Of a stretch of 59,219 bases of DNA, positions 5,204-50,201 are shown piece by piece (the first letter of the stretch is position 1; each line of letters starts with the position of its first letter). Made by a program: the position numbers and the translations under genes. Under the pieces are notes generated by a model, which was given only the letters and a program-made list of their open reading frames with translations, had not been told where the DNA came from and searched no databases. The stretch is from a virus (Duplodnaviria; Caudoviricetes): positions 1 to 59,219 of the IMG/VR virus record IMGVR_UViG_3300050011_000072; one strand, given 5' to 3'.

Positions 5204-7675
5204 TTATACGATATTTTCTACCATACTTTGTATTCTTTCTCCGATCCATCTAACCACCGGAACGGCGAAGCTATTGCCCATCGCCTTGTACATCGGGCAA
5301 TCAGCCGGCGGTTTGCCGCGATACAGGACGTGGCCTAGATACCCTCGCGGGAACCCCTGCAAAGATTCACATTCCGGCACGGTAAGCCTTCTCACTGCGT
5401 ATCGAGTCGCCACAATCGGCTGCCCCCGTCCAGTCCCATCCTCGCTGGCGTCGAAGCCATCTGCCTTGAGCGTGTGCGTGATGTCGCCGGTGATGCAGAC
5501 CGCCTGCGCCTGCGGACTACTCGATCCGAGCGCACCGAATACCTCAGTGCTGCTTACCGTATCCTGGCGGCTGTCGAAGGCTATCGGCGCAAACACATGC
5601 GCCTTGTCACCACCACCACCACTGGCGCGTAGGCAGGTCGCGACCTCATCGCCGAGTTCAGCGGTTGCGCCGCCTTCGCGGCCGCGTAGGGCGACGGATA
5701 GCGCCACGTTCTCATGGCTATCTTGCGATCGGCCGCGCAATGCGCCGATACCTTCTCGCCAATAGCCAGCGCCGCTTGTCGAGTATCCATCCTGAACAAG
5801 GAACGTTTCCGTCTCGAAGTCCATCCGACCGCTGGCGCTGGCGCAGGCGTTGCGTGCCGTGGCTACGTCGATGCTTCCTGATTGGTTATTGCCGCCGAAT
5901 GCAACGGGCTGGATTCCTCCCGCGCATTCAAAGTCGGTACCGAAGCCGCCGCCGCTTGAAGCGCGTGCTCCAAGAGTGCCGGTAATTTCTTGCCGCGATT
6001 CGCGGCGCGGCGCAATATCCCGGCGCACGCCGTCGAACTCAAAAAGTACCGCTGCGGGATCGAACCCGTCTCGAGCACTTGCGACAACGAACACACGGCG
6101 GCGTCGTTGGGCCACTCCGAAATATTGGGCATCAAGGGTTCGCCATGCAATATTCCGCTGCGGTCCATACACACAACCAGCGTTCGACCACCTTCCCCCT
6201 GGCGCGACGAGCGGGCTATCCTCGCCGGCAAGCGCTCCCAGAAAGCAGCCGAAGGCGTTATCTTTTGTACTGAGCACTCCGGGGACATTTTCCCAGACGA
6301 TGATGGATTCAGGTTCTCCGCGAACATGTCGAACTGCGTCGATTGCATTGGCTAAGTCCACAAATGAAAGAGTTAATTGACCACGGGCATCGTCCATAGA
6401 TGCACGCAGACCGGCAATGCTGAAGGCTTGACAGTTGTGGACGACGGCGCCGTTGAGGACATATGAATTATCGCCTTCGACTTCAATGTTGTAAACGGTA
6501 TCGATGCCGACGGGTGTATATGACTGAGCGCGCCGCAGCAAATAACCATGGCGCACGCGACTCTTGCGCGACACATCGGCGTGTACTGCCTTGACTGACC
6601 AGTAATCGCGCTGATTCACGGTTCGACCTTCAATGACACAGGTATCCTGCGTTTTCATGAACGTCAGACCCGCCGAATATCCATTGCAATTGGCGAGGTC
6701 AACAATGCCAAGTGCGAGAGCGTGGCTGACGGAATTGGCGACGAAGCCATTGGGCGTCATGCCGCCATCAGTGTCTAGGTATCCGCGCAGCAGTTCAGCG
6801 CCGAACTCAGACCCCGCCACCCATGCCGGAATGCGCTTGCAGTGGGACAGTTCGCCAAACTGATCCATCAGCCATTCGGCGAATGCGGTGTCGCAGACGA
6901 TGACCTTGATCGAGCCGCGGCTTTCTTTCGTGAATGCGCCAATGCCTGGCGCGGCAACTTTGAACTTTTCGACTTTTGATTTATTTAGACAGAACACGAC
7001 GGATTTCTTGTTTTTGCCGCCCCATTTGCGAATATAACCGTCGCCCAAATACATTCCAGCAAGGTACATTGCAGTTTCTGCATCGAACTTTGCCGATACA
7101 GGATCATGACCAGGAATCTCGTAATGCGTCAGTGCGCACCAATTCTTTCCTATCAGTTGTTGCGCCTCGACCCACTCCGGCGCGCCGCACTGTTCAATCT
7201 TGGCGTACGCCCCGTTGCGCTTTGTACTCTGCATACGGAAGTCAACGGAAAGGAACGGATGATCTGGCGTGGTGACGATGCCCGATGCCATTCCCACTCC
7301 GGTCAATTTTCCTACCTTGGCGAGCTTGCTGCCGACACGCAAAACACGCTGTAACCGCCCTATATGCGTCACAACCAGATCATCTACCACTACCGATTCG
7401 ATGGACTTGTATCCGGCTGAGCACAAAACCATGTGCCCAGCAGTAAAGCATGGTGTGCCGCCGACCAGAACATCGGGCGCAGCAACTATTCCAGCGCGCA
7501 CCATAGCCGCGATCTTGGTCATATCGCCAAGATTCGCCACTGCTGGATAATGATGCGCAAGCACCGAAGACGGAAATTTCTCTATTTCGGCAAACCATGC
7601 CGGCGACCACCCAATTGGATGCCATGCGACAGTGGCCGCTTCAATCCCACTGCACACGCTGCCATAGGTAGTCAC
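5204..7675 (-). CDS. C5 DNA cytosine methyltransferase (alpha chain) containing an intein
   Basis: Motif I variant SVCSGIEA, GGTP-[intein]-CQAFS, WENVPG, AQYFGVAQRRRRVF, RRLTVPECESLQGFP, YKAMGNS. Confidence 0.93.
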   Translation of the reverse strand: MTTYGSVCSGIEAATVAWHPIGWSPAWFAEIEKFPSSVLAHHYPAVANLGDMTKIAAMVRAGIVAAPDVLVGGTPCFTAGHMVLCSAGYKSIESVVVDDLVVTHIGRLQRVLRVGSKLAKVGKLTGVGMASGIVTTPDHPFLSVDFRMQSTKRNGAYAKIEQCGAPEWVEAQQLIGKNWCALTHYEIPGHDPVSAKFDAETAMYLAGMYLGDGYIRKWGGKNKKSVVFCLNKSKVEKFKVAAPGIGAFTKESRGSIKVIVCDTAFAEWLMDQFGELSHCKRIPAWVAGSEFGAELLRGYLDTDGGMTPNGFVANSVSHALALGIVDLANCNGYSAGLTFMKTQDTCVIEGRTVNQRDYWSVKAVHADVSRKSRVRHGYLLRRAQSYTPVGIDTVYNIEVEGDNSYVLNGAVVHNCQAFSIAGLRASMDDARGQLTLSFVDLANAIDAVRHVRGEPESIIVWENVPGVLSTKDNAFGCFLGALAGEDSPLVAPGGRWSNAGCVYGPQRNIAWRTLDAQYFGVAQRRRRVFVVASARDGFDPAAVLFEFDGVRRDIAPRRESRQEITGTLGARASSGGGFGTDFECAGGIQPVAFGGNNQSGSIDVATARNACASASGRMDFETETFLVQDGYSTSGAGYWREGIGALRGRSQDSHENVALSVALRGREGGATAELGDEVATCLRASGGGGDKAHVFAPIAFDSRQDTVSSTEVFGALGSSSPQAQAVCITGDITHTLKADGFDASEDGTGRGQPIVATRYAVRRLTVPECESLQGFPRGYLGHVLYRGKPPADCPMYKAMGNSFAVPVVRWIGERIQSMVENIV
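5863..6348 (-). CDS. Nested alternative-frame ORF, putative beta subunit of an EcoHK31I-like split C5 methyltransferase
   Basis: Same strand, different frame, ATG start; NISEWPNDAAVCSLSQVLET...RYFLSSTACAGILRRA resembles the M.EcoHK31I beta polypeptide as I recall it. Confidence 0.7.
   Translation of the reverse strand: MQSTQFDMFAENLNPSSSGKMSPECSVQKITPSAAFWERLPARIARSSRQGEGGRTLVVCMDRSGILHGEPLMPNISEWPNDAAVCSLSQVLETGSIPQRYFLSSTACAGILRRAANRGKKLPALLEHALQAAAASVPTLNAREESSPLHSAAITNQEAST
6434..7450 (-). mobile_element. Intein with LAGLIDADG homing endonuclease (339 aa)
   Basis: Starts CFTAGHMV; block B TTPDHPFL; LAGMYLGDG and LRGYLDTDG; ends VYNIEVEGDNSYVLNGAVVHN followed by +1 Cys. Confidence 0.95.
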
Positions 7676-15808: not shown

Positions 15809-18001
15809 ATGATTACGCACGAACTAATTCAGGGATCGCCGGAATGGCTGGCATACCGCGCAAACCATTTTAACGCTAGCGATGCGCCGGCCATGATGGG
15901 CGAGTCGATTTACAAGACGCGCACGCGGTTGATGCACGAAATGCATACCGGAATATCGGCTGAAATCGATGACGCAACACAATCTCTATTCAATGATGGG
16001 CACCGATTCGAGGCGTCTGCCCGCCCGCTTGCCGAAAAATTAATCGGCGACGACCTATACCCTGTTACCGGGTCGAACGGAAAGTTTTCGGCATCGTTCG
16101 ACGGCTTGACGATGGATGATTCGACGGCGTTTGAACACAAGAGCCTGAATGATGAACTGCACACTTTGATGGTAGATGGATTTGATGGAGCTGATCTTCC
16201 ACTCATGTATCGAATCCAGATGGAGCAGCAATGCCTTGTGTCGGGTGCTGATCGCGTCCTATTCATGGCGTCAAAATGGTCTGGCGATGAATTGGTTGAA
16301 GAGCGCCATTGTTGGTATAATTCAAACGGATTTTTGCGCGCCGAGATTATTGCCGGTTGGGAGCAATTTGAAAAAGACCTTGCCGAATATACCCCAGTCG
16401 AAGTTATCGCGCCCGTCGTCGCGACACCAACTAAAGACCTACCTGCGCTGTCGATTCAGGTCAACGGCTCAATCAGCCTAATTTCCAATCTTGACCGTTT
16501 CGGAGTCATGCTTAACGAGTTTATCAAAGGCATTAATCAGAAGCCAAACGATGATCAAGGCTTTGCCGATGCCGATGCAGCTTGCAAGACGTTGCAGAAG
16601 GCCCAGGACGCACTGGAAGCCGCTGAAGCCAATGCGCTGACCCAAACATCAAGCATTGACGATATGCGCCGCACGGTGAAGCTGTACACTGACACGGCCA
16701 GAGTAACACGGCTTGCCCTTGAAAAAGTCGTCAAGGCTCGTAAGGAATCAATTCGCGTCGAAATCGTCACCGAAGGGAAATTGAAGTTCGCCGACCATAT
16801 CGCGGCGCTGAATATGCGCCTCGGCAAGCCTTATATGCCGGTCGTAGCGGCTGACTTCGGCGGCGTCATCAAGAGCTTGCGGACGATCGCATCGGTTCGC
16901 AATGCCGTCGATACCGAGCTGGCCCGCGTCAAGATCGAATCGAATGCCATTGCCGACAAGATAGACATCAATCTCAAGTGCTTGCACGAACAAGTAAAAG
17001 ACCATGCTTTCCTGTTCGCCGATACCGGTGTCATTGTCATGAAAGAAAATGCCGACCTGATTTTATTAGTCAAGTCGCGCATTGATGATCACACTAAAGC
17101 GGAAGCAGAAAAAGCCGATGCATTGCGGGCGCAGACTCAAAAGGAAGAGGAAGTCAAGGCGACCGCCAAAGCAGCCAAAGCAGCCAAAGACGCGCAGGAT
17201 AAAGCAGATGAAGAGGCGCGCGTGAAGGCGCAGGCAGAGGAGATTGCATTTATGCGCAAGGAACTGGAAGCGCAGCGCATTGCCAACCAGATCGCCGCCA
17301 AGGAAGCGGCGGACAAAGCTGCTGCCGCATGGCAGGCAGAGCGAGTAGCGCAAGAGGCTGAACTTGCTGCCGAACGCGCTGAAGCGGCCAGGTTGCAGGC
17401 TATTGAGGATGAGCGACGGCGTATTAACGACCTTGACATTGAGCGCCAACAAGCGGCGGTCCGTGCGGAATATGCCGAAATTGAAAAGAAAATGGTGATT
17501 GAGCGCGCAGAGATTGCCGAAGCCCAGGCCCGTATCGACGCGCACAATGCGGCAGCGGCCAAAGTTGAAGAACATCGGCGCGCTGTAGCGGAACGTACAG
17601 CCGCACTACAACGCGAAGCCGATCATCCGTCTCAATATGAGACTTCGCTTATTCCTGATTCGCAGAAAGTCACCTGTGAATACTGCGATGGCACTGGCGA
17701 TGTACACGGTATTGATGGCGAATGGCGCGGCAGATGCTATGCATGCGATGCGCTCGCTAAACCTGTACGCCTGCGCAAACCGATGAAGCAAACCGATGAA
17801 GCGCCGCCCGTCTTAATCAACCTCGGGCGCATCAATGCCATCCTGAACGGACCGACAGTATCGTCGGAATTTCTTGCGGCAAAAGGGTTCATCGCGATCC
17901 AGCAAAAGAATGCTAAGATGTATCGCCAATCCGACGTCGGTGCAATTTGCGGCGCCATCGTATGGCACATTCAGGCTGTCATTTTGGAGAATAAATCATG
18001 A
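15809..18001 (+). CDS. YqaJ/lambda-Exo family exonuclease with long helical extension
   Basis: QGSPEWLAYR, ASDAPAMMG, GHRFE, ASFDG, FEHK, YRIQMEQQ; long E/A/K-rich coiled coil; CEYCDGTG...CYAC. Confidence 0.88.
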   Translation: MITHELIQGSPEWLAYRANHFNASDAPAMMGESIYKTRTRLMHEMHTGISAEIDDATQSLFNDGHRFEASARPLAEKLIGDDLYPVTGSNGKFSASFDGLTMDDSTAFEHKSLNDELHTLMVDGFDGADLPLMYRIQMEQQCLVSGADRVLFMASKWSGDELVEERHCWYNSNGFLRAEIIAGWEQFEKDLAEYTPVEVIAPVVATPTKDLPALSIQVNGSISLISNLDRFGVMLNEFIKGINQKPNDDQGFADADAACKTLQKAQDALEAAEANALTQTSSIDDMRRTVKLYTDTARVTRLALEKVVKARKESIRVEIVTEGKLKFADHIAALNMRLGKPYMPVVAADFGGVIKSLRTIASVRNAVDTELARVKIESNAIADKIDINLKCLHEQVKDHAFLFADTGVIVMKENADLILLVKSRIDDHTKAEAEKADALRAQTQKEEEVKATAKAAKAAKDAQDKADEEARVKAQAEEIAFMRKELEAQRIANQIAAKEAADKAAAAWQAERVAQEAELAAERAEAARLQAIEDERRRINDLDIERQQAAVRAEYAEIEKKMVIERAEIAEAQARIDAHNAAAAKVEEHRRAVAERTAALQREADHPSQYETSLIPDSQKVTCEYCDGTGDVHGIDGEWRGRCYACDALAKPVRLRKPMKQTDEAPPVLINLGRINAILNGPTVSSEFLAAKGFIAIQQKNAKMYRQSDVGAICGAIVWHIQAVILENKS

Positions 18002-18923: not shown

Positions 18924-19007
18924 TCAATCCGGCGCATCTTTCCGTTTCTGCCGATAGTCTATCTTGCCGGTCCAGAACTGAATCCAGAAGTTGAGGAACA
19001 TCATCAT
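18924..19007 (-). CDS. 27-aa aromatic/cationic peptide, last gene of the lysis cassette (not in ORF track)
   Basis: MMMFLNFWIQFWTGKIDYRQKRKDAPD; ATG overlaps the lipase stop; its stop abuts the convergent gene's stop. Confidence 0.45.
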   Translation of the reverse strand: MMMFLNFWIQFWTGKIDYRQKRKDAPD

Positions 19008-19657
19008 ATTTTCCCCAATTGCGTATCGCGCCACTTCATCAATCCCGGCATGACCGCAGCAAGCATGTGGTCGTCGAACGGGTCAATCCCTGGCGCCTGA
19101 TTATTCAGTTCGATCATGGTTTCTCGAATGTGCCGCCAAAGCAGAATATGCAGCGGCACGTCGACCACAGGGTCGCGCGCGTTGCTGAAGCTGTAGATCG
19201 TTTTGATTATCGAATTGACCAGATCGGCGTAGCCTTGATATCCTGGACGGGGCGTTTCGAGCATCACAAGCATGTCCACCGGCAAGCCTGCTTTGGCCGC
19301 CATGACTGCCATCAATGATGCATGGGGAGATCCGAGCGAGTGGCCGACGAATGCCGCGCCTTGCGGTATTTTCGGCTTAAGCCATGCCCACGCATCCTGA
19401 TATCCTTCTGTAAAGCCGAAGTGCATCGTAACGCCTAGCTCAGGCATGTAGAATGGTATCGCCGTGACGTCGTCAATGAAATCCCGTGCGTCGTTACTGC
19501 CGGCACAAGCGACGATAGGACGGCCCCATTCAGTAATTCCAAGGCCGAGATTGAAGGTGTCGGACGAATAGTAATCGGTGAATGAAACCGATTTAGCGTC
19601 GTAGGCTTGGGTGGCGAATAGCCCAAGTTGCCATACTTTTTCGGCTTCAGGTATCAT
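19004..19657 (-). CDS. Class-3 lipase-like alpha/beta hydrolase
   Basis: VACAGS, HFGF, nucleophile elbow FVGHSLG, ETPRPG, NARDPVVDVP, WRH, DHM. Confidence 0.9.
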   Translation of the reverse strand: MIPEAEKVWQLGLFATQAYDAKSVSFTDYYSSDTFNLGLGITEWGRPIVACAGSNDARDFIDDVTAIPFYMPELGVTMHFGFTEGYQDAWAWLKPKIPQGAAFVGHSLGSPHASLMAVMAAKAGLPVDMLVMLETPRPGYQGYADLVNSIIKTIYSFSNARDPVVDVPLHILLWRHIRETMIELNNQAPGIDPFDDHMLAAVMPGLMKWRDTQLGKI

Positions 19658-20067
19658 TTTGCCGACGCAGGCAAGACGTTCGGAATAATGCTTGCTGCGG
19701 CGGCGCCGGAAATGGCTGGAATTGGCAAATTTACCGCTCCTACGCCCGTGGTGGTGGTCGGCGCCGAACCGCCCAAGTTCGGCGTCTTAATCTGCGCCCC
19801 CTGAATCATCGTCATGGCATTCGTTGTCGCGCTTGACTTGACACACATCTTTTCAATGCCCTGCTGATACTGGACCGGCGATTGTACGATGTCATACCAC
19901 GGTGTCATGCAGAGCGCGAAAACCTTGGCGTTCAGGACATTCTGACCGGCGGCAATCTGATTCGTTGCGATGTTTGACTCGTACCCGGCTATAGCAGTAT
20001 TGGCTACCGTACCGCAGCCGGTCAGCGCGGCGCAGGCCAATAGTACATAAATTAGTGTGCGTTTCAA
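19654..20067 (-). CDS. Lipoprotein
   Basis: MKRTLIYVLLACAALTGC lipobox; TTG start with AGGAG RBS; two further Cys. Confidence 0.8.
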   Translation of the reverse strand: MKRTLIYVLLACAALTGCGTVANTAIAGYESNIATNQIAAGQNVLNAKVFALCMTPWYDIVQSPVQYQQGIEKMCVKSSATTNAMTMIQGAQIKTPNLGGSAPTTTTGVGAVNLPIPAISGAAAASIIPNVLPASAK

Positions 20068-20076
20068 GTGTTGCTC

Positions 20077-20316
20077 CTATTTGTGATGTACTTCAAATTG
20101 ATCGCCGCAATGCTCGCGGTCCACATGCGATTCACACCAATTTCGGTGTTCATCGGTTCGCAATGGCGGTTCATCGGCATCCAGCACGATAGCCCCGACG
20201 ATTGCCGCGCCTTCAGCGATCGCGCCCAGGTCGTCAAGCGTAGCTTGTTCGCCAGGAGTCATGTTTGCGCAGCCGGTGAGCATCCATATTGCCGACGCCA
20301 GGAAAATGGTTTTCAC
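20077..20316 (-). CDS. Small lipoprotein
   Basis: GTG start with GGGAG RBS; MKTIFLASAIWMLTGC lipobox; two C-terminal Cys. Confidence 0.7.
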   Translation of the reverse strand: MKTIFLASAIWMLTGCANMTPGEQATLDDLGAIAEGAAIVGAIVLDADEPPLRTDEHRNWCESHVDREHCGDQFEVHHK

Positions 20317-20483
20317 TGTGGACTCCCTAACATATTGACAGACAGGCCGGTGAGGGCCATTTTGAGCAGCGTTTTGATCTCTGCGCCCCCGTCCGCTGCT
20401 TTTGGTGGGAAGTATTCGAGCAGCATCCATGCGACGAGCATGAGCAGCGCCGCGGCGAGTTTGGCAATGAGTATCGGATTCAT
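20313..20483 (-). CDS. 56-aa membrane protein, holin candidate (not in ORF track)
   Basis: MNPILIAKLAAALLMLVAWMLLEYFPPKAADGGAEIKTLLKMALTGLSVNMLGSPQ; ATGA and GTGA overlaps. Confidence 0.65.
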   Translation of the reverse strand: MNPILIAKLAAALLMLVAWMLLEYFPPKAADGGAEIKTLLKMALTGLSVNMLGSPQ

Positions 20484-21826
20484 GCCAATACCCCGACTGC
20501 GTGATCTTGCATATAGGCCAAATCCTTCGCGCCGGCGCCGGCCACAATCGACGTCTGTAGCCAGCTATTCATCCATGCGACGAAAATGGATAGACCAGGT
20601 GCCGCAGGGATGCGCCCGAAGTAGGTTTGAAACACCCAAGTCACTACCTGCGCGAGCGTTGATACTTCGGTCGGCGGCGTGTAGGCGGTTGATGGCGCCC
20701 ACCCCGGCGCGGCCATGAATGCCAAGTCGCCAGCGCCAGCACTCGATACGATTTGCGCTTTCACGGCGGCAATCACAGCGTTGGCGAAAAGTGTTTGACC
20801 GCCTGGATTCGGCATACGGCCGAAATTATCGACAAACACGTATTGCACGGCTTGGTCAACCGTGCTTGCGCTTGTCGGCGGCGATAGATGTGTGGTCAAG
20901 TCAGGGCCAAGTGGACCGTTGATCACTACGCCGTTGTTCGTTACTTGCGTGACGACAAATGCAGCCGTGCAATCGCTGATAATGGCAATTGAAGCCCAAA
21001 AGAACCCTTGCTCACCCCACGCGGCGCCCCATGAATTTTGAATCTTGAAGCAGGGCGTTGCGTTGCCAGTGATCGGGTCGGTGACAGTTTCGTATCCGAC
21101 GATTCGCACACTGTGGCCGCCGATCTGGCTACCTGGATTTTGCGAACTTCCCATCGGATAATAAATCTGGCCGGCCTTCATGGTTTCAATCTGTTCGCCG
21201 ACAAGGAAATCAGCGTTGACCGCATAACCTTTGGCGAGCGCGTACATCAACCAGAATTGTTGCACCTCGTAAGTTTGCCACGAGATGAACGTCATCGGAT
21301 ATTTGGCCGGCGGCACAGGATAGTAACAACTTGTCAAAATTTTCTCAAACCCGGTAATCGTGGTATTCAGCGCCGCCGTGTATGCGGCAGTAGGCGGCAC
21401 GGCTTCGGTCAGCGTTGCATCGGTGCTAGGCCATAGCGATTCAGGGCATGAGCCGAAATATCCGGCCGCCAGCAATGCCGCCTCGGTCGTGCTGCCGGTA
21501 TCTGTCGTTGGAGGCGCCCCAAACAGGATTGTGCGCGAATTGTAATAATTGAAAAATGCCGACTGTACAGAGAAGTCAGGGCCATCGGTGCCAGGCGTCG
21601 CTTGCGCTTCCATGCCGAGGTATGCTTCGATGTTCTCGGTCAGGTCTTCCGCTGTACACATTCCGACGGTAAATTGATTTGAGATCGGCACATAGTCCAA
21701 TGTGCTTAGATCGACCGATGCCGGCAACTGTGCCGTGTAGTCAATTTTGAATATCGGATAGGTGCCGCCGCATACCGGCAATGGTTGTGTCAGTTTCGGC
21801 GGATTGAGTGCTAGATTGAATTTCAT
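20480..21826 (-). CDS. Papain-like (peptidase C1) cysteine protease with two C-terminal DUF4214-like repeats
   Basis: LPASVDL, NQFTVGMC, GGHSVRIVGY, IQNSWGAAWGEQGF; repeats VFVDNFGRMPNPGG and VFQTYFGRIPAAPGL. Confidence 0.88.
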   Translation of the reverse strand: MKFNLALNPPKLTQPLPVCGGTYPIFKIDYTAQLPASVDLSTLDYVPISNQFTVGMCTAEDLTENIEAYLGMEAQATPGTDGPDFSVQSAFFNYYNSRTILFGAPPTTDTGSTTEAALLAAGYFGSCPESLWPSTDATLTEAVPPTAAYTAALNTTITGFEKILTSCYYPVPPAKYPMTFISWQTYEVQQFWLMYALAKGYAVNADFLVGEQIETMKAGQIYYPMGSSQNPGSQIGGHSVRIVGYETVTDPITGNATPCFKIQNSWGAAWGEQGFFWASIAIISDCTAAFVVTQVTNNGVVINGPLGPDLTTHLSPPTSASTVDQAVQYVFVDNFGRMPNPGGQTLFANAVIAAVKAQIVSSAGAGDLAFMAAPGWAPSTAYTPPTEVSTLAQVVTWVFQTYFGRIPAAPGLSIFVAWMNSWLQTSIVAGAGAKDLAYMQDHAVGVLA

Positions 21827-42047: not shown

Positions 42048-42326
42048 TTAGACCGTAAAAACGTGCTTGCAATCAGGGCAGGTAATCAGCGCCGCCATAT
42101 CCTCGACTTCAACGATAGGCGCGCGGCCATCGAGCAATCGTTGAATGACGGTTTTGTCGATGATGATCTTGCCCTGCTTGAATGTCATCGTGATCGGCGA
42201 TGAAACAGTAAATGCCTTCGTCACCATGTAGGCGCGTTCGACCCCCACCGCTTCGACTTCAGCCGCTTTCGGCAAATGCATCACGGGCGGTCGGCCAGGC
42301 CCGCGCTTCTCTTGATGATTGCTCAT
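42048..42326 (-). CDS. Hypothetical protein with AT-hook-like motif
   Basis: KRGPGRPP; C-terminal CPDC. Confidence 0.6.
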   Translation of the reverse strand: MSNHQEKRGPGRPPVMHLPKAAEVEAVGVERAYMVTKAFTVSSPITMTFKQGKIIIDKTVIQRLLDGRAPIVEVEDMAALITCPDCKHVFTV

Positions 42327-43558
42327 ACGACGTTGATCCCTTGCGCCACCAGCGCACTCAATAGCGTGTAATCCAGAATGCGCGGGCGTCCATACCAGAG
42401 TTGAATGATCGAGCCGCCGAAGGTCAATTCCGCATTTGCGCCAGGGATAACCGGGCCTGTGCCGCCGGCAAATTTGCCGCTGTTGCCGAGCGTGACAGTT
42501 TCACTTGCCGCCGTGCTCAACGTCATGACTTCGGTCGCTGCAGTCGATAGCGTGATCGTTTCATTGCCGGTGCCGGTAACTGCTTCGCTGAACGTGATCG
42601 AGCCGATAGCTGCCGGCCATGCGATGGAAACAACGTCAGGCGTGCCATTCGTTGCCGATATCCCGGCATTGACCAGCAATTCGTCGGCATTGATCAGATT
42701 GAACAACCCGGTTGCGATTGTTGCCGCTGTATCGAGTGCGCCAGCCGTGTATGTGACAGTTTGCGCGCCACCTGCGATGTTGGCATTGGTGATCGTAATC
42801 GCCGCTGTATCGCCTGCGATCACTGACGATGCCGCCACGGTTGCCAATGTCGGATTGACGATGTTCGGGAATACGCTCAATACAATTGGCTCTTCAGCCG
42901 CGGGGATCGCCACAACAACGGTAGAGGTGCCAGTCGCCGTGATGCTTGCCGCTGCCAACACGGTATTCGCATTGATCGCGTTTTTCAACGATGTTGCTTG
43001 CTGCGTTGCGGTATTGCCAGCAGTCGATGCCGCCGATACCAAAATCGGAGTAACGAACGTGCCGCCAGTGAATAGAACATTGAGCGTATCGCCCGTTACC
43101 GGAGTTCCCGACATGGTAATGACGGCCGAGCTTTCGGTCGGTGTAGTCAATACGGCCAGATTGCCAACAGGACCAGGCCAATTGAACGTGACCACGTTCG
43201 ACGTCGCAGGCGTGGTGCCGGTGGTCGCATACAAGCCGACCGCTTGCGCTTCAGCGTTACCATTGACCAGCGATGCGAATTCCTCCGCAACGGTTGCCGT
43301 AGTGTCAGACGTTTGGACGATATAAACCAAGTCCAGCACGCCATTCGGCAATATGCCGCACGAAATGACCATCGGGATAATATCGCCGTTGGTGATGGTG
43401 CCACCGATAGTTGCGGTGACGGTCGCCACGGCGCGCGGATTAGCTGAAATGAACTGCGCCGCCGTCAGCAGAGTGGTGATCCCAGGCGCTACCTGTGACG
43501 GCGTATCGAAGTTCGGTAGTAGTGTGGGCGAGCCACTTTGCAATGGTACGGAGGGCAT
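42323..43558 (-). CDS. Virion decoration protein with three repeated beta modules
   Basis: Three GD...T-A-T-(V/Q/I)-A...(V/I)N modules; T/A/G-rich. Confidence 0.65.
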   Translation of the reverse strand: MPSVPLQSGSPTLLPNFDTPSQVAPGITTLLTAAQFISANPRAVATVTATIGGTITNGDIIPMVISCGILPNGVLDLVYIVQTSDTTATVAEEFASLVNGNAEAQAVGLYATTGTTPATSNVVTFNWPGPVGNLAVLTTPTESSAVITMSGTPVTGDTLNVLFTGGTFVTPILVSAASTAGNTATQQATSLKNAINANTVLAAASITATGTSTVVVAIPAAEEPIVLSVFPNIVNPTLATVAASSVIAGDTAAITITNANIAGGAQTVTYTAGALDTAATIATGLFNLINADELLVNAGISATNGTPDVVSIAWPAAIGSITFSEAVTGTGNETITLSTAATEVMTLSTAASETVTLGNSGKFAGGTGPVIPGANAELTFGGSIIQLWYGRPRILDYTLLSALVAQGINVV

Positions 43559-44033: not shown

Positions 44034-45431
44034 TTAGCCGGCATGAGCAACCACGCAAGCGCGCTTCCATGCTGCAGACGACGCAGTAGGGATAATCGAG
44101 GGAGTGGCCGTGAGGTCGGTCGGAACTGCGTAATCGCCGATCCAGGTCCACGATAGCGATGCGAACCGATTCAGTCGGTCGATAGGTGGGCGAATGATTT
44201 GCAGCACGTTATCAACCATCATCGTGTTGGCAATCGGGGTGACGCCTTCGCGGGAGAGGTATGTTTCCATGCCCTCGAAATTGCCCTCGATCAGGCATTC
44301 AGCCCCCAGAACGATCGGACGACGCACGGTAACGCCGACTTGCGATGCGCCGGTAGAGCCGTTTGCATTGGCGCTGCCACCCAATTGAACGTAGGCGTTG
44401 GTGGTCGGAATAAACGTCATGCCGAGCATCACGTACACGTCCGACCGCTTGATCACCTCGCTGTCTTGACGGCTGGCAAAATAGACCTTGAAATCCTGAT
44501 CAGCCATCAATTGGCGATGGGATACATCGTCGAGAATGACGTGATAGGTGCCATCGGACATAACCGGCACACCGTTCGAGCGCAGGCCGGCGACCGCATC
44601 CTGCAGCAATCCGAGCGTGAGAGTATCCTGCATCGACAATTGCGCGTCGGACACATGCCCGGAAGGGCGCTTGATTGCCGGAGCGTAGGACGCGATCAGC
44701 GCATCGCCATTTGCCGGGGTATTGGCGGCGGCGGGATAGATCGTCAAATAGCCGGAAACGCCGTCAGGGGTTGTCGAATAATTCGTTGCGGTCGGCGCAA
44801 CTGCGGTGATCGTCAGCGATTGTGTGTAGCCGGCACTCGATACGGCATATTCCTGCACCGTGATCGGATTGGTGCCGCTTACACCGATTGGCGTTCCGTT
44901 GACCCATGTATTTTGAAATCCACGGATATCGTCAACGTAGACCAGCGTAGTGCTGTCGCTACCGAGATCGGACCGCACGCGGGTATTTGCCCCGACGTAG
45001 GCCGAAAACAGTTTGAACCGGCTGATCAGTTCGCGGGATTGCGATGCCTGCACGCCATTGTTGCGGCTGTTGGCAATGAAATCATCGGCGATTGTTGCCT
45101 CGGTACCGAGGATATCGACGTCCACGGTGTCGGCATACGGCTGCAGCGTGAAACTGTATTGCTCAATCGAATAACTCGATGGCGTCATGCCGTTATCCAA
45201 TGCGTTGAGCGTGGAAACGGGCAATGGGGTACGTGTCGGTGCCTTGCGGCCCTTGCGAGTGCGCGTCAGTGTTTCGCCAATGCGGCCGGGGATGGTTTCC
45301 TGCACGGCGCACGAACGATAAGCAAGAACGGAATCAAGCCCTTCTTCCAATTCGCGTTCCAGAAAACCTTGTTGCAATTCGTTTGCGAGTGCCGAAGGCA
45401 GCCACGCAAAGTCAGTCGTTGCGATAGTCAT
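44034..45431 (-). CDS. Major capsid protein
   Basis: QQGFLERE.EEGL.S.LAYR, IGETLTRTR.G, LRSNGVP, RPPIDRL...SW.WIG...PTD; after scaffold, before terminator. Confidence 0.85.
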   Translation of the reverse strand: MTIATTDFAWLPSALANELQQGFLERELEEGLDSVLAYRSCAVQETIPGRIGETLTRTRKGRKAPTRTPLPVSTLNALDNGMTPSSYSIEQYSFTLQPYADTVDVDILGTEATIADDFIANSRNNGVQASQSRELISRFKLFSAYVGANTRVRSDLGSDSTTLVYVDDIRGFQNTWVNGTPIGVSGTNPITVQEYAVSSAGYTQSLTITAVAPTATNYSTTPDGVSGYLTIYPAAANTPANGDALIASYAPAIKRPSGHVSDAQLSMQDTLTLGLLQDAVAGLRSNGVPVMSDGTYHVILDDVSHRQLMADQDFKVYFASRQDSEVIKRSDVYVMLGMTFIPTTNAYVQLGGSANANGSTGASQVGVTVRRPIVLGAECLIEGNFEGMETYLSREGVTPIANTMMVDNVLQIIRPPIDRLNRFASLSWTWIGDYAVPTDLTATPSIIPTASSAAWKRACVVAHAG

Positions 45432-45444
45432 GTAAAGCTCCAAT

Positions 45445-45665: not shown

Positions 45666-46286
45666 TTAACGCTTTGCCAATTTCAGCATCGACGCTTTTT
45701 TGCGCGCTTCATATTCCGCTTTTGGCAGTTCGCGCAAATTGGTTCCCGGAGGATTGACAACCGGCGCCGGTTTGCCGGGAGCGCCGGATGCAGTAGGTGG
45801 GACGACAACGGCGGCAGCGCCAAAATACGATGGCTTGCTTTCCTTGAATGCGGCAATGGCTTCGGCAACGCCGGTCACTGTTCCGTCTTCACCCAACTTC
45901 ACGCCGTCGCGCTTCACCAGCGCCAGCAGGTCGAGGTCGTTCAATCCAGCCTGCATTGCGGCAATCTTCAATTCCGATTCGATGATGCGCGGCTCGTACG
46001 TTTTCACGCGAGTGTTTGCGGTTTCCGTCGCTGTGGCGATTTTTGCCGCGGCCTCATCCTGCGCGGTCTTCGCGGCAGCAAGTGCGGCATCGGATTGCGC
46101 TTTCGCCTCTTTTGCCGTCAATCGAGCGGCGGCGGCATCGGCGCGCGCATCGCCTAAATCACGCTTAGTGCGGTCGTATTGATCTTGAGATACGGTTTTG
46201 GCGGCGGCGCGTTGTGCTGCAGCAGCGGCATCGGCATTTGCGGAGGCTGTTGCTGCGTCGGCAGCGGCTTGTTCTTCAGGTGTCAT
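45666..46286 (-). CDS. Capsid scaffolding protein
   Basis: Ala-rich coiled coil, ELKIAAMQAGL.DLD.L, FKESKPSYFG, C-terminal EYEARKK. Confidence 0.85.
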   Translation of the reverse strand: MTPEEQAAADAATASANADAAAAAQRAAAKTVSQDQYDRTKRDLGDARADAAAARLTAKEAKAQSDAALAAAKTAQDEAAAKIATATETANTRVKTYEPRIIESELKIAAMQAGLNDLDLLALVKRDGVKLGEDGTVTGVAEAIAAFKESKPSYFGAAAVVVPPTASGAPGKPAPVVNPPGTNLRELPKAEYEARKKASMLKLAKR

Positions 46287-46310: not shown

Positions 46311-46661
46311 TTACATCCCGCCGATGCCAATACCCCAATTTGAGGTAACAGCCGTTACGGCCGTAGCATTGGCAACTGTCACCACGAAATAAAATGCAGG
46401 GCATGCGTCGGATAGCACGCAATTCCCGGCCACGTTGGCCGTTGTCGCAGCCGAATTTGATGTCAGCGGAACCGCGCTATTGGCGTCCATGTAGCGTTGA
46501 ATCTTGATTGTCACAATCTGCGTCGCGAGCAATGCCGCCACAATCGCGCCGTAGCCATCATTTGCAATCGGGCCTGAACTCCATGTTTCGCCGGCCACGA
46601 TAAATGACGGGAATCCTGCCGCCGGAACAACGCCGATTGCCGGGTTATTGTAGATAGCCAT
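46311..46661 (-). CDS. Small beta-rich protein, probably virion-associated
   Basis: Low charge, A/T/V-rich. Confidence 0.6.
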   Translation of the reverse strand: MAIYNNPAIGVVPAAGFPSFIVAGETWSSGPIANDGYGAIVAALLATQIVTIKIQRYMDANSAVPLTSNSAATTANVAGNCVLSDACPAFYFVVTVANATAVTAVTSNWGIGIGGM

Positions 46662-47152
46662 TAGTACAGCCCTCCAGGCGCGTAGTGCGGTTGAACCGTT
46701 GGGATCGCCGATAGCTGCGATGCGGTGAGCGCCGCCGCTTGCGCGGTAGTCAATGCGTATGCCTGCGCGGTAGTCGCAGAGCCGAAACTGGCCGGTTGCA
46801 ATGCTGCGATCTGTGTAGTCGTAAGCGCCACCACCTGCGCGGTCGATAAACCATGACTCACCTGTGCCGCCGTTAATGCGGCAACCTGCGCGGTTGTCAG
46901 TGCGGCGACTTGCGCGGTGGTCAATCCCAGGTTAATTTGTGATGTGGTCAGCGCCCCTACGTCAGCCGTCGGCATTGCCGCAATCGTCGCTGTCACGAAT
47001 GCCGGTATCTGCGCGGTGGTCAATGCGATCAATTGACCGGTCGCAAGCCCTGCAATATCGGCAGTCGTCGCGGCGGCGATCTGCGCCGTGGTGAGCGCGA
47101 CGACTTGCGCAGTCGTTAAAATCGGCGGCCCGTTGAATAAACCCATTGTCAT
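46661..47152 (-). CDS. LTTAQ(I/V)AA 8-aa repeat protein
   Basis: More than a dozen imperfect LTTAQxAA units. Confidence 0.75.
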   Translation of the reverse strand: MTMGLFNGPPILTTAQVVALTTAQIAAATTADIAGLATGQLIALTTAQIPAFVTATIAAMPTADVGALTTSQINLGLTTAQVAALTTAQVAALTAAQVSHGLSTAQVVALTTTQIAALQPASFGSATTAQAYALTTAQAAALTASQLSAIPTVQPHYAPGGLY

Positions 47153-47156
47153 GTCC

Positions 47157-47372
47157 TTAACTTTTGATTATTGCTAATAGCTGATCTTGCGCGATCTGTT
47201 GACCGAGCGCCACAAATACGGATACCGTGCCAGCGCATGATGCGCGAATGTCATAGAGCATTTTCATGCACTCAATCTGCATGATCAATTCGTCGTCGGC
47301 CACTACCACACCAGATTCGACAAAAAATTGCGCCACCATGCCCATGATCGGCGACGTGATATTTATTTTCAA
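47157..47372 (-). CDS. Stand-alone biotinyl/lipoyl-carrier domain protein
   Basis: ITSPIMGMV...VESG..V...QIECMKM.YDIRA..AGTV...G.QI...QLL; MKM biotinylation motif; GAGGG RBS. Confidence 0.88.
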   Translation of the reverse strand: MKINITSPIMGMVAQFFVESGVVVADDELIMQIECMKMLYDIRASCAGTVSVFVALGQQIAQDQLLAIIKS

Positions 47373-47707
47373 ATTTCCCTCGCATCCGGTTCGCGCCAGT
47401 TAATCGTTACCTGCGGCGCAAACGTGTCACGCGAAAACAACCGCAAAATCAGCCCATCCTCTGCAAATGCATTTAGGACAAATGAGCCGGTAAATGCAGA
47501 CGGCATGAAAAACAGGTCATTGCCGGTTGCGTCAGTCAATAGGATATTTCCCCATGCGCCCTGTGAGCAAATCATCACGCTATACAATTCTGCACTGCGT
47601 CTCGATAGCCGATGCAAACCCGGCAATCCTATGCTCGCCGACCGCATGAGGCTGCCAGGGCATGGTCGCCCGATGACCTCGTTTATTTGCGCTTGAACGG
47701 GAGCCAT
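47369..47707 (-). CDS. Hypothetical protein, paralogue of 47683-48048
   Basis: GSFVLNA...DGL...AP.VTINW. Confidence 0.65.
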   Translation of the reverse strand: MAPVQAQINEVIGRPCPGSLMRSASIGLPGLHRLSRRSAELYSVMICSQGAWGNILLTDATGNDLFFMPSAFTGSFVLNAFAEDGLILRLFSRDTFAPQVTINWREPDAREI

Positions 47708-48048
47708 ACAATCGACGCCACAGGGGCGACTTCAGCGGTTCCGCCCACACTGCGGATTGTCAGCCCGTGTTTAAACCCCGCATTGAGCATCCAGGTTCCC
47801 ATGCAGCATGGTGATGCACGATAAAATTCATATCCGACCGTCGGATCTTCGGTGGCGTCGAAAAACCCATTTTCGTCGGGCACGCCATCAATAAAATGTA
47901 GGCTCCCACTGCCCGCATGAGTGACGGCGGCGACGATCAACGTGCCTTCGCCGCGCTCCAGGCAATAGATGCCTTTCTCGCGCAGCAGGAAACATTTCCC
48001 CCCCATCGGCGGCATTGGCCGCTCCATAAACTGCACTCTATTTTGCAT
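47683..48048 (-). CDS. Hypothetical protein, paralogue of 47369-47707
   Basis: GTWMLNA...HGL...AP.ASIVW. Confidence 0.65.
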   Translation of the reverse strand: MQNRVQFMERPMPPMGGKCFLLREKGIYCLERGEGTLIVAAVTHAGSGSLHFIDGVPDENGFFDATEDPTVGYEFYRASPCCMGTWMLNAGFKHGLTIRSVGGTAEVAPVASIVWLPFKRK

Positions 48049-48253
48049 TGAGTTGCGTTTCGCAGTCGGACGTAAATTGTTTCAGCATCGCGATCATGTT
48101 GGTCAATTCCACATTCGATAAATAATGGATTCGACCGTCGCGCGCGCCCATGTCTGTGGCGATAACGCAGAATCCGTAGCCGTCCAGCGTTGAACCGAGT
48201 GCCTTGCCGGCCTCCGTCATGCGCCATCGATGTTGGATGTCTACCGCTCTCAT
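48038..48253 (-). CDS. Hypothetical protein
   Basis: GFCVI...IHYLSN; coupled. Confidence 0.6.
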   Translation of the reverse strand: MRAVDIQHRWRMTEAGKALGSTLDGYGFCVIATDMGARDGRIHYLSNVELTNMIAMLKQFTSDCETQLNAK

Positions 48254-48639
48254 TTTTTATTGGCTTTCTTGCATGTCTGTTCGCGAAACGAGAACATCAG
48301 TTCTTGCGCAATCCATTGAATTGCATACGCCTCTATTTCATCGCCGGGCGATTGTTCGCCGATATATTTGCAATACGACTGCCAAATATGGACGGCCTCA
48401 TGCATCAATAGTGCGGCAATATAAATAGGGTCTTTGCCCGTGAAATCTTTTACGCATACTAGCGCAATTTCCTGATCTGTCTGCGATTTGAAAAAATGCG
48501 TTGTCGCACCAGTTAGACTAAATGCCGGGAGATTTTCAAACCCAAATTTGCGCAACTCTGAGTGGAAATCAGCTACCGTTAGGCACAGTGCATATGGCTG
48601 GCAAAATCCTATGCCTCGATCCAGCCATTTGACCGTCAT
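48250..48639 (-). CDS. HEXXH zincin-like small protein
   Basis: LLMHEAVHIWQ...EIEAY. Confidence 0.7.
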   Translation of the reverse strand: MTVKWLDRGIGFCQPYALCLTVADFHSELRKFGFENLPAFSLTGATTHFFKSQTDQEIALVCVKDFTGKDPIYIAALLMHEAVHIWQSYCKYIGEQSPGDEIEAYAIQWIAQELMFSFREQTCKKANKK

Positions 48640-50201
48640 TCCGTAGCCTCAATCGGCAATGGCAGCGGTTCAACCCCGGTAGCCAAGGTATTATTGACGA
48701 CGACGGTTAAATCGGCGTCTGGCACCGCATCCTCGCCATCTATATCCATCAATCCGAGATCGAGATTACTCACCAAAATCGCGCGCGCCTCTTGATGCGT
48801 GAGCAACGGCGGCACTTGCGGTAATGGTTTCGGTGCGACTTCACCGGGATTCGTCGGTTTCGCTTGAGCCTGTTGATCGCCCCCGATTGCAGCAATCAGC
48901 GCCGGGATTAGCAATGCTATATCCTGCACGGTCGGCGCGTATAATCGCGGCCATTGCGATACCAGCCCGCCGGCCAGATCATCCATGCCCAGCGCCATCG
49001 CCACTTTTCCGACTAGCTCAATCGGGTCATACGCTGTGCGCAATTCCATGACCAAATCGTTGAAATCCTCGTCAAGATATTCCATTGCCCGACCGGATAG
49101 CACGCCCTTAATTTGCTCTGGATTTTTGCGGCTTGCGCAAATCTGTTCGAGCGCCAATGCGCGCAGCCGCTCAGTCAGGTCCAGCGCCGCTTTCGTGCCG
49201 GCGCCGTCCATCTCTAGCAATTTCGCATCTCCACCGCCGATAGTCTCGCCATCCTCTGTTTTGTGCGCTGCGTTGAATTGCAGGTAATCGGCAGGCCCAC
49301 GGTGCAGCACGCCATCATCATCTGTCGTGTCGCCCGCCAATTGCCCGATCACGACCAATTGCGGCGCGCAGTTGTAGCGTACACCGCGCCCGGATTGCGA
49401 TAGATCGTAATCCAGTTCGATGCTATTTTCCAGCGCAGGCCGCCATGTGCAGAGGCCATCGGGAGTTTCGCCGCCGGCCAGATTGCGGAACCACACACCA
49501 GGAACGAATCCAAAATTGTGTGTTATTTCCTCGCGGGGCGTCAGCGCGATTCCCTCGGCGATATTGACGCCTACTGGATTCCATTGATCGTGCTCCAGCG
49601 GCACGTAATTTATTTCCGACGTCGGCAAATAATCGCGCACAAACCAATACATGCGCGTCGGATTCAATCCCTCGGCGCCGGCGGCCTCCAATTGCGCGGC
49701 AGTCGTCACGTATGCTACCCGTAGCGCCGCGAGTTGGCCCATATCGTCAAATGTCGGCGTGCAGTATTTCGACGGCCACACGGAAAATGATATGCGTTGA
49801 TCTTCGCTCACCCGGAATGTTACAGCGACCGATCCGACCGAGCCGCGTGATGCAGCCTCGATTAGCACCTCCCACAATTTCCAGTTCGTGAGATTTTTCT
49901 CGAATTCCAGCGCCAGTTTTGGGTTGTCGGCGTTGCGGATTCGCGGGATGTGCCGACCGCTGAATAATTTCCGCGCGCAGGACCGAGCGACTAATTGCGG
50001 CAAATGAAACTGCGCGGCTGGCCGGCGATCTTTCATCGGCACCGGATCGCCGTTTGTTTTCCGCTCATCGTAATAGCTGTAGGGCAGCACATCGTACAGT
50101 GTGCCGTCCAGGCATCTATCGAGCAAATCCAACCGGGAATAGCGCGCGCAATATCTCACCCATTCGGGGTATTTAATGCGGGCAGCGATCTGATTTAGCA
50201 A
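48636..50201 (-). CDS. Portal protein
   Basis: After TerL; LDGTLYD.L.Y, HNFGFVPGVWFRNL, Y.LSQ.GRGVRY...PQL, GDAKLLE, SGRAME. Confidence 0.88.
   Translation of the reverse strand: MLNQIAARIKYPEWVRYCARYSRLDLLDRCLDGTLYDVLPYSYYDERKTNGDPVPMKDRRPAAQFHLPQLVARSCARKLFSGRHIPRIRNADNPKLALEFEKNLTNWKLWEVLIEAASRGSVGSVAVTFRVSEDQRISFSVWPSKYCTPTFDDMGQLAALRVAYVTTAAQLEAAGAEGLNPTRMYWFVRDYLPTSEINYVPLEHDQWNPVGVNIAEGIALTPREEITHNFGFVPGVWFRNLAGGETPDGLCTWRPALENSIELDYDLSQSGRGVRYNCAPQLVVIGQLAGDTTDDDGVLHRGPADYLQFNAAHKTEDGETIGGGDAKLLEMDGAGTKAALDLTERLRALALEQICASRKNPEQIKGVLSGRAMEYLDEDFNDLVMELRTAYDPIELVGKVAMALGMDDLAGGLVSQWPRLYAPTVQDIALLIPALIAAIGGDQQAQAKPTNPGEVAPKPLPQVPPLLTHQEARAILVSNLDLGLMDIDGEDAVPDADLTVVVNNTLATGVEPLPLPIEATE

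Follow-up and report, generated by a model that had tools for sequence, protein, structure and literature searches.

What a phage would gain from a small biotin-acceptor domain encoded among the genes for its head, with no enzyme to go with it, is the question raised by BIO, a gene for a stand-alone biotinyl domain of 71 amino acids at positions 47157..47372 on the minus strand of the 59-kb window (the whole stretch of DNA analysed here, 59,219 nucleotides). The window is an entire IMG/VR virus record, rated 100% complete by CheckV, and the assignment of BIO is based on its match to PF00364, an AF2 model, fold matches and conservation within a clade of related phages.

An earlier note on this DNA had described a complete biotinyl-type domain with EC-M-K-M, and profile, model and fold comparisons all agreed with that description. 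The ECMKM motif occupies residues 34-38 of BIO and includes E34 and the putative target lysine K37. In the Pfam Biotin_lipoyl search that the earlier note had proposed, BIO matched PF00364 with E 4e-10 and 39.8 bits, above the cut-off of 22.1, and as residues 5-69 align on profile positions 3-73 of 73 the domain is complete; a six-frame search of the phage record gave 37.8 bits for the same family at BIO. Against the PDB, phmmer found 16 distinct sequences at E<=0.01, every one with a biotinyl domain, and the best of them, the alpha subunit of 3-methylcrotonyl-CoA carboxylase (MCC; 1.2e-5), aligned end-to-end with the MKM lysines in register. The AF2 model, built with 40 sequences, has six strands and a pLDDT of 98.2. 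Foldseek matched this model in the PDB to carboxylase biotinyl domains at TMq 0.86-0.95 and rmsd 0.8-1.7 A, T. brucei MCC being the best (TMq 0.95, rmsd 0.8 A). By VIA the model reached Z 13.6 to the BCCP (biotin carboxyl carrier protein) of P. horikoshii and Z 12-13.6 to carboxylase biotinyl domains in general, against Z 7-10.7 to lipoyl domains, and the sole phage entry among the 50 best matches listed was a baseplate protein at Z 6.3.

E-x-M-K-M type motifs are biotin-accepting, and the D-K-A motif is that of lipoyl domains. With its profile match and its modelled barrel-sandwich hybrid fold, in which the lysine sits at the hairpin tip, BIO is a member of the biotinyl/lipoyl superfamily, and as judged from its motif and its best sequence and fold matches it is of the biotin-accepting and not of the lipoyl subtype. 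As an AccB/BCCP-type carrier it does not qualify on sequence: all 19 NCBIfam matches fell under their curated cut-offs, the carrier equivalogs TIGR00531 and NF005117 giving 26 bits against 115.2 and 37.4 against 159, and BIO consists of the domain only, without N-terminal segment or linker. PHROGs and PADLOC hold no family for BIO, nor for its neighbours g112 and g121. In BFVD, BIO matched two giant-virus lipoyl proteins only and no phage protein at E<=1e-3, and a word-indexed protein search returned only its own record. The protein atlas placed BIO in ordinary biotinyl clusters only and g112 with small beta-sandwich proteins without a family. A disulfide between C35 and C46 was considered and rejected by reasoning, since the strand that follows the hairpin has one of the two cysteines at either end.

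The gene is read from a TTG start (47372-47370), 4 nt downstream of a GAGGG ribosome-binding site (47377..47381, minus strand; read from the sequence). This start overlaps the TGA stop of g112 (47371-47369) as TTGA, and the ATG of the gene 3' of BIO follows 4 nt past the BIO stop, in accordance with the own ribosome-binding site and tight coupling reported for it before. The public gene call for BIO is 62 aa long and runs from M10, by which the first strand is lost; the TTG start adds the strand that the M10 call cuts off and so restores the full domain. The public call for g112 starts at an internal M45, and conservation in relatives supports the longer forms of both genes as the probable ones. 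Promoter-like and terminator-like sites between 43500 and 52500 were not more frequent than in shuffled sequence, and BIO has no private promoter or terminator there. TTG or GTG starts were found in 4 of the 11 clade copies of BIO, which would fit a low-copy product. The G+C content is 45.8% in BIO and 44.6% in the 129-aa gene after the portal gene (48250-48639), against 52-61% in the surrounding head genes.

The genes on the minus strand follow one another as TerL, portal, the 129-aa gene, a 71-aa gene, g121, g112, BIO, the ALTTAQ-repeat protein, g116, scaffold, major capsid protein (MCP), g62 and g411, and with TerL, portal, scaffold and MCP as its flanks BIO does lie among late genes, as the earlier note had it. 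The portal protein (48636..50201; phrog_64 and phrog_145) is 43-46% identical to its relatives, the MCP (44034..45443; phrog_1357, E 9.3e-20) is 55-60% identical to clade relatives, and the head scaffolding protein (45666..46286) matches Pfam Phage_scaffold (E 5.6e-16) and phrog_194; all of these, and the genes described below, are on the minus strand.

Translationally coupled to BIO is g112 (47369..47707), which encodes an all-beta, jelly-roll-like protein of 112 aa with 44-50% identity to 9 relatives, and before it stands g121 (47683..48048), encoding 121 aa with 43-55% identity to 9 relatives. The two are probable paralogues, as suggested by hhalign (probability 55.7%, E 1.2e-4, 37 columns) and by the common motif (M/T)GS(W/F)(M/W)L.AG...GL (window 47369-48048). 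Neither belongs to a family in Pfam, PHROGs, NCBIfam or PADLOC, and profile searches of both against the PDB were empty. The AF2 model of g112 (pLDDT 90.7) is a beta sandwich, for which the best VIA matches were weak, at Z 7.5-7.0, and comprised CUB domains, appendages of the Ena type from spores and, at Z 7.0, the phage KHP40 cement protein. Avidin and streptavidin had no entry among the 50 best g112 matches listed, which leaves the idea of an avidin-like binder without support. Complex prediction for g121, g112 and BIO with alignments scored 0.00, which is no answer and counts neither for nor against binding.

On the other side of BIO lie the ALTTAQ-repeat protein (46661..47152; 163 aa, Pfam PF20080 at E 4.6e-25 in 5 stretches) and, between it and the scaffold gene, the unannotated g116 (46311..46661; 116 aa), which has no match in Pfam, PHROGs or NCBIfam. 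Neither gave a tblastn match in related loci, and in this phage only they seem to replace a gene for a repeat protein of ~235 aa. Downstream of the MCP gene, g411 (42323..43558) has about three copies of a ~100-aa repeat with the consensus ...GD..T.IAAALAA.IN...L...G..AT...ITI.FPS, which it has in common with the ~235-aa post-BIO protein of relatives, where the repeat occurs once (L003 6242-6943); by tblastn it was found inside the post-BIO gene of L011-L014, L017, L022, L040, L078 and L079. One copy in g411 gave a sub-threshold LysM match (E 0.003), and the repeats of g411 and the post-BIO proteins may be glycan-binding head decorations.

That the genome encodes no carboxylase or ligase, as claimed before, was confirmed for the whole record, which at E<=1 contained no match to PF03099 (biotin/lipoate ligase), PF02786 (biotin carboxylase ATP-grasp) or PF01039 (carboxyltransferase), and exactly one match to PF00364. 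In the whole records of five relatives (CheckV 100, 88, 82, 49 and 29%) PF00364 likewise matched once each, and neither a ligase nor a biotin carboxylase was found. Other genes of the phage are a contractile-tail-type baseplate gene (Baseplate_J) and the lambdoid replication and nin genes DnaB, RecT, NinB, NinG and Rha. The possibility that BIO is a lysogenic moron was rejected, as no integrase was found among the 71 ORFs scanned with Pfam and the gene has no promoter or terminator of its own.

Three further features of the genome were recorded. An 823-aa C-5 cytosine DNA methylase (window 5204-7675, minus strand) has two PF00145 stretches and, towards the N-terminus, matches Hint_2 and LAGLIDADG_3 weakly, and from this arrangement it may be an intein-interrupted methyltransferase. 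A 730-aa protein beside RecT (window 15809-18001, plus strand) matches Pfam only within its first ~150 residues, to a YqaJ exonuclease domain, and its other ~580 residues are unassigned. Close to each other downstream of the tail genes (window 19004-21826, minus strand) are two genes, one for a 217-aa protein with a class-3 lipase domain and one for a 448-aa protein with a papain-family peptidase domain.

Relatives of BIO were sought by HMMER over 1.84 billion representative proteins, which gave 246 matches at E<=1e-3. The top scorers were multi-domain decarboxylase and carboxylase carriers, whose high scores are due to two or three biotinyl domains in each, and beneath them were stand-alone proteins of 64-78 aa, 27-48% identical to BIO. 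An alignment of BIO with 39 of the 62 stored matches of <=115 aa, in which E34, K37 and G48 are invariant, is a biased set since the sequences were picked by eye as short and with a non-canonical motif. A scan of viral contigs with the BIO sub-alignment, which used the ECMK pattern, yielded 8 loci, and a scan with a narrower alignment (A5) yielded 4; single BIO or MCP sequences gave no loci in the viral contigs, where alignments did. Because the first scan had used the ECMK pattern, the survey was redone with loci chosen by MCP similarity only (alignment A3), and 30 viral loci were obtained, 13 with an MCP 55-60% identical and 17 with one at 40-42%.

A BIO domain was present in 10 of the 13 loci with the more similar MCP, 1.7-3.8 kb upstream of the MCP gene, and all 10 copies carry E-[CSA]-M-K-[MTSV]. 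As for the other three loci, the DNA upstream of MCP in L015 and L019 is shorter than 3 kb, and L020 lies on a contig that has BIO further upstream, where it is the copy of L009. Several loci represent identical or near-identical phages (L012/L013/L014/L078/L079, L022/L040, L006/L010, L007/L016 and L008/L011), so that about 11 distinct BIO copies are counted. These are 68-82 aa long, with nothing beyond the domain.

In a FastTree phylogeny of 238 domain segments, of which 208 came from the stored matches, 19 from Acetobacteraceae genomes and the remaining 11 were the phage copies, the phage copies and 43 stand-alone metagenome proteins of <=85 aa formed one clade with an SH-like support of 0.92 and no multidomain or cellular sequence inside; with only about 70 alignment columns this tree is a guide and not a proof. 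K37 is conserved in 100% of both the 54 clade members and the 184 other domains, E34 in 100% and 99%, and M36 in 96% and 88%, respectively. Around these residues the two groups differ: position K-2 is Cys in 54% of the clade and Ala in 59% of the other domains, K+1 is Thr (41%) or Met (33%) against Met in 85%, K+2 is Phe, Leu or Met in 87% against Glu in 74%, and K+3 is aromatic in 74% against Asn, His or Thr. The E-x-M-K hairpin is thus fixed while the rest of BIO drifts to 25-51% identity, a pattern expected from selection for recognition by a biotin ligase. The counterpart of E34 in E. coli BCCP, E119, is a determinant of BirA recognition, and biotinylation of the transcarboxylase 1.3S subunit does not depend on its flanking methionines. 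Loss of the lysine in phage homologues, named in the earlier note as an outcome that would contradict it, was not seen in any of the 54 clade members or of the 10 copies found independently of the motif. The invariance of K37 suggests that these phages use the biotin-tagging enzyme of the host for a purpose not yet described.

The neighbourhood survey proposed in the earlier note showed the same head-gene order around BIO in relatives with enough DNA. PHROG annotation of the neighbours in 8 loci gave portal, small genes, BIO, a gene for ~235 aa, scaffold (phrog_194) and MCP (phrog_1357), and tblastn with the head proteins found g121, g112 and BIO together in every clade locus reaching far enough upstream. 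The ~235-aa protein follows BIO in most clade loci, in the order portal, g121, g112, BIO, ~235-aa protein, scaffold and MCP. Identity across the clade was 25-51% for BIO, 30-45% for the scaffold, 43-55% for g121, 42-50% for g112 and 43-46% for the portal protein, and a divergence comparable to that of its neighbours indicates that BIO has been in the module for long and was not acquired recently.

Outside this clade the cassette was not encountered. In the sister group, with an MCP ~41% identical, BIO was present in none of 17 viral loci and none of 12 loci from GTDB genomes (MCP 40-41% identical in the latter), and tblastn found no g121, g112 or g411 in sister-group loci. Several of the 12 GTDB loci without BIO are prophages in Acetobacteraceae or Rhodospirillales chromosomes, and the single GTDB locus with an MCP 55% identical, on a contig of an Acetobacteraceae metagenome-assembled genome (MAG), carries BIO. 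Ralstonia phage Raharianne and Komagataeibacter phage phiKX1 have no cassette either, and lead from the portal gene through one scaffold-type gene to the MCP gene. The absence from the sister group and from both cultured relatives examined marks the cassette as a clade-specific insertion between portal and scaffold, and the wider lineage assembles its heads without it. The same gap carries HNH/Lar-like genes, a methyltransferase and an HslV-type peptidase in relatives; it is an insertion hot spot, and position alone is therefore no proof of a structural role. No cultured carrier was found, as tblastn of two BIO family members and g112 against 50,697 phage records gave no match, nor did megablast of the head region against cultured phages.

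Genomes of Acetobacteraceae and Rhodospirillales, as well as phages of Komagataeibacter and Ralstonia, contain related head modules, and from these relatives the hosts are likely Acetobacteraceae; the G+C content is 53% in the window and 62-73% in those loci. An overproduced biotinyl domain reportedly derepresses the bio operon of E. coli (Cronan, 1988), and the earlier note gave it as known that in E. coli excess apo-acceptor derepresses biotin synthesis and competes with acetyl-CoA carboxylase. The ligase ORF of the BIO-bearing MAG (244 aa) has BPL_LplA_LipB and BPL_C domains and no HTH, and the ligase of a second Acetobacteraceae genome has the same domains, also without HTH. According to passages of PMC5640590, alpha-proteobacteria have class I ligases and biotin genes under BioR, and in organisms with class II ligases an excess of apo-acceptor perturbs biotin regulation. 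The E. coli logic of BirA and the bio operon cannot be assumed for likely hosts with a class I ligase that lacks the repressor domain, and the mechanism proposed earlier transfers to them only poorly.

Cellular counterparts were examined in a family-profile search of 301 Acetobacteraceae genomes, of which the best 20 loci were inspected, a further 709 matches lying outside those listed. These 20 were 1 phage contig, 7 cellular stand-alone proteins, all with the canonical LESMKMEIP and no head genes nearby, and 12 C-termini of long ORFs. In 4 of the 12 (L064, L065, L067 and L071, carboxylase alpha-subunit ORFs) the sequence is EAMKTVFRLTAP, with MKT for the usual MKM, and since Thr at K+1 is found in real carboxylases it is alone no sign of lost carrier function. 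Two stand-alone biotinyl ORFs were observed ~14 kb apart in one Acetobacteraceae genome (G139:C2:684597-684812 and 698282-698497), the former (L075) with the canonical LESMKMEIP motif.

Our working interpretation, advanced tentatively, is that BIO is a host-biotinylated, low-copy accessory protein associated with the head. It would be made late, from the head-gene operon, as a true biotin acceptor; the biotin protein ligase of the host would attach biotin to K37; and holo-BIO would then act as a low-copy accessory of head morphogenesis or of the virion, together with its cassette partners, which are the two jelly-roll paralogues (g121 and g112), joined in most relatives by a repeat protein of decoration-like character. 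Biotinylation in vivo is rather probable from the conserved motif, and association with the head is conceivable and proposed with reserve. The latter is argued for by co-inheritance with three genes of the head operon, coupling to g112, a divergence like that of its neighbours and weak starts in 4 of the 11 copies. Against it count the bare domain of 68-82 aa, which leaves no extra segment for anchoring to a capsid, the cassette-less heads of the wider lineage and the low G+C content of BIO (45.8%) relative to its neighbours (53-61%). By our estimate the biotin supply of the cell is too small to tag a high-copy decoration protein. The earlier note had offered two roles, a late biotin sink and a biotinylated virion component; the head-cassette context fits the second better, and the E. 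coli-based mechanism offered with the first transfers poorly to the likely hosts.

BIO might instead be a soluble decoy acceptor outside the virion, which soaks up biotinyl-AMP and keeps the ligase of the host busy, or contends with host BCCP for biotin carboxylase or carboxyltransferase, and carboxylase activity and fatty-acid synthesis would then be lowered late in infection. A bare minimal domain on whose surface nothing but the ligase-recognition hairpin E-x-M-K is strictly conserved would suit this purpose, as would the dispensability of the cassette for head assembly in the sister group. There is also a parallel in plant BADC, BCCP-like proteins that regulate ACCase negatively, and passages of PMC5640590 describe how excess apo-acceptor disturbs biotin regulation under a class II ligase. 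In the likely hosts, however, the ligases are of class I and have no repressor domain, which leaves no BirA switch, and a sink made late would presumably leave carboxylases already loaded with biotin untouched. Nor does the use of TTG or GTG as start codon by 4 of the 11 copies suggest the high expression that a sink needs, and strict co-inheritance with three head-module genes is unexpected for a metabolic add-on. Docking into a carboxylase active site is opposed by the residues after the lysine, K+2 being Phe, Leu or Met in 87% where carriers have Glu in 74%, and K+3 aromatic in 74%. We consider such a decoy, and equally its effect on fatty-acid synthesis, unlikely.

It is less likely again that BIO stays unmodified and that its fold serves as a small head adaptor or assembly chaperone, with the lysine kept for partner contact or other chemistry. 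The same fold does occur as a non-cofactor module in adaptors of the HlyD, AcrA and MexA type, which reached Z 10-12 to the BIO model, the strand after the lysine is hydrophobic and clade-specific, and the gene stands in a head operon. But E34 (100%), M36 (96%) and K37 (100%) are kept despite identities of 25-51%, as is typical of biotin-accepting domains, such domains and not adaptors make up all of the closest matches in sequence and fold, and cofactor-free domains of the biotinyl fold usually lose the lysine. A working carboxyl carrier that feeds the biotin carboxylase or carboxyltransferase of the host, and sustains or redirects malonyl-CoA production or another carboxylation, seems very improbable to us. 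The domain is complete and MKT, the commonest clade variant, is also found in the four Acetobacteraceae carboxylase alpha subunits mentioned above; yet the AccB-type N-terminal segment and linker are lacking, TIGR00531 scores 26 bits against 115.2 and 19 of 19 NCBIfam matches are sub-cut-off, the Glu at K+2 of 74% of the other domains is replaced, and location and co-inheritance are with head genes and not with metabolic ones. No partner carboxylase or carboxyltransferase occurs in the record and no PF02786 in the five relatives, although a host enzyme could serve.

If the head-associated reading of BIO is taken one step further, particles would carry covalent, host-added biotin as a functional tag, either as bait for surface proteins that bind or take up biotin, or as a tight non-covalent lock within the cassette that stabilises the head; this extension is a doubtful one. 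Protein biotinylation is among the most specific of modifications, and to our knowledge bacteria use it only for carboxyl transfer and, via BirA, for regulation. An enzyme-less acceptor with an invariant lysine points either to a structural role of biotin that would be new or to a novel interference with host biotin metabolism. Should the particles be biotin-tagged, they would be the first virions tagged with a cofactor and the first case in which natural protein biotinylation serves neither carboxyl transfer nor BirA regulation, and naturally biotinylated virions would offer a ready handle to capture uncultured phages together with their hosts. The domain itself is classical, and what is new is that a phage head operon contains a conserved copy of it without an enzyme. 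The earlier note knew of no described example, and the titles and abstract starts of the full-text literature likewise gave no description of a phage-encoded stand-alone biotinyl protein, while supplementary tables of viromics studies could list it as 'BCCP'.

Among known systems, phage cement and decoration proteins, such as that of KHP40, are small and encoded in the head module, and the jelly-roll of g112 matches the KHP40 cement protein weakly (Z 7.0); we know of no decoration protein with a biotinyl fold. Plant BADC, which is related to BCCP but works by competing and does not serve as a carrier, is a precedent for a decoy, but it lacks a biotin-accepting site within a full BCCP architecture, whereas BIO keeps the lysine in a bare domain. 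The stand-alone proteins of Acetobacteraceae (7 of the best 20 loci) differ from BIO in their canonical LESMKMEIP and in having no head-gene neighbours. NF004547, 'biotin/lipoyl-binding carrier protein', aligns with BIO end to end (1-70 on 1-71), but at 28.2 bits against a cut-off of 75 BIO is no member and forms a separate clade in the tree; this family is of the type of TB7.3, a mycobacterial protein of 71 aa. B. subtilis BLAP (PDB 1z6h) resembles BIO in consisting of the acceptor domain only, of ~70 aa, and superimposes with Z 11.1 and rmsd 1.4 A over 68 of 72 residues; it can be both biotinylated and lipoylated. With the biotinyl domains of carboxylases (MCC, PCC and PC, and the BCCPs of P. 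horikoshii and E. coli) BIO has in common the Pfam family, the fold, the E-x-M-K hairpin and the placement of this hairpin ~35 residues before the C-terminus. It differs from them in being without carboxylase, linker or N-terminal segment, in its phage head operon, in forming its own clade, and in the strand after the lysine, which is hydrophobic or aromatic in BIO and Glu-Asn/His in the carboxylases.
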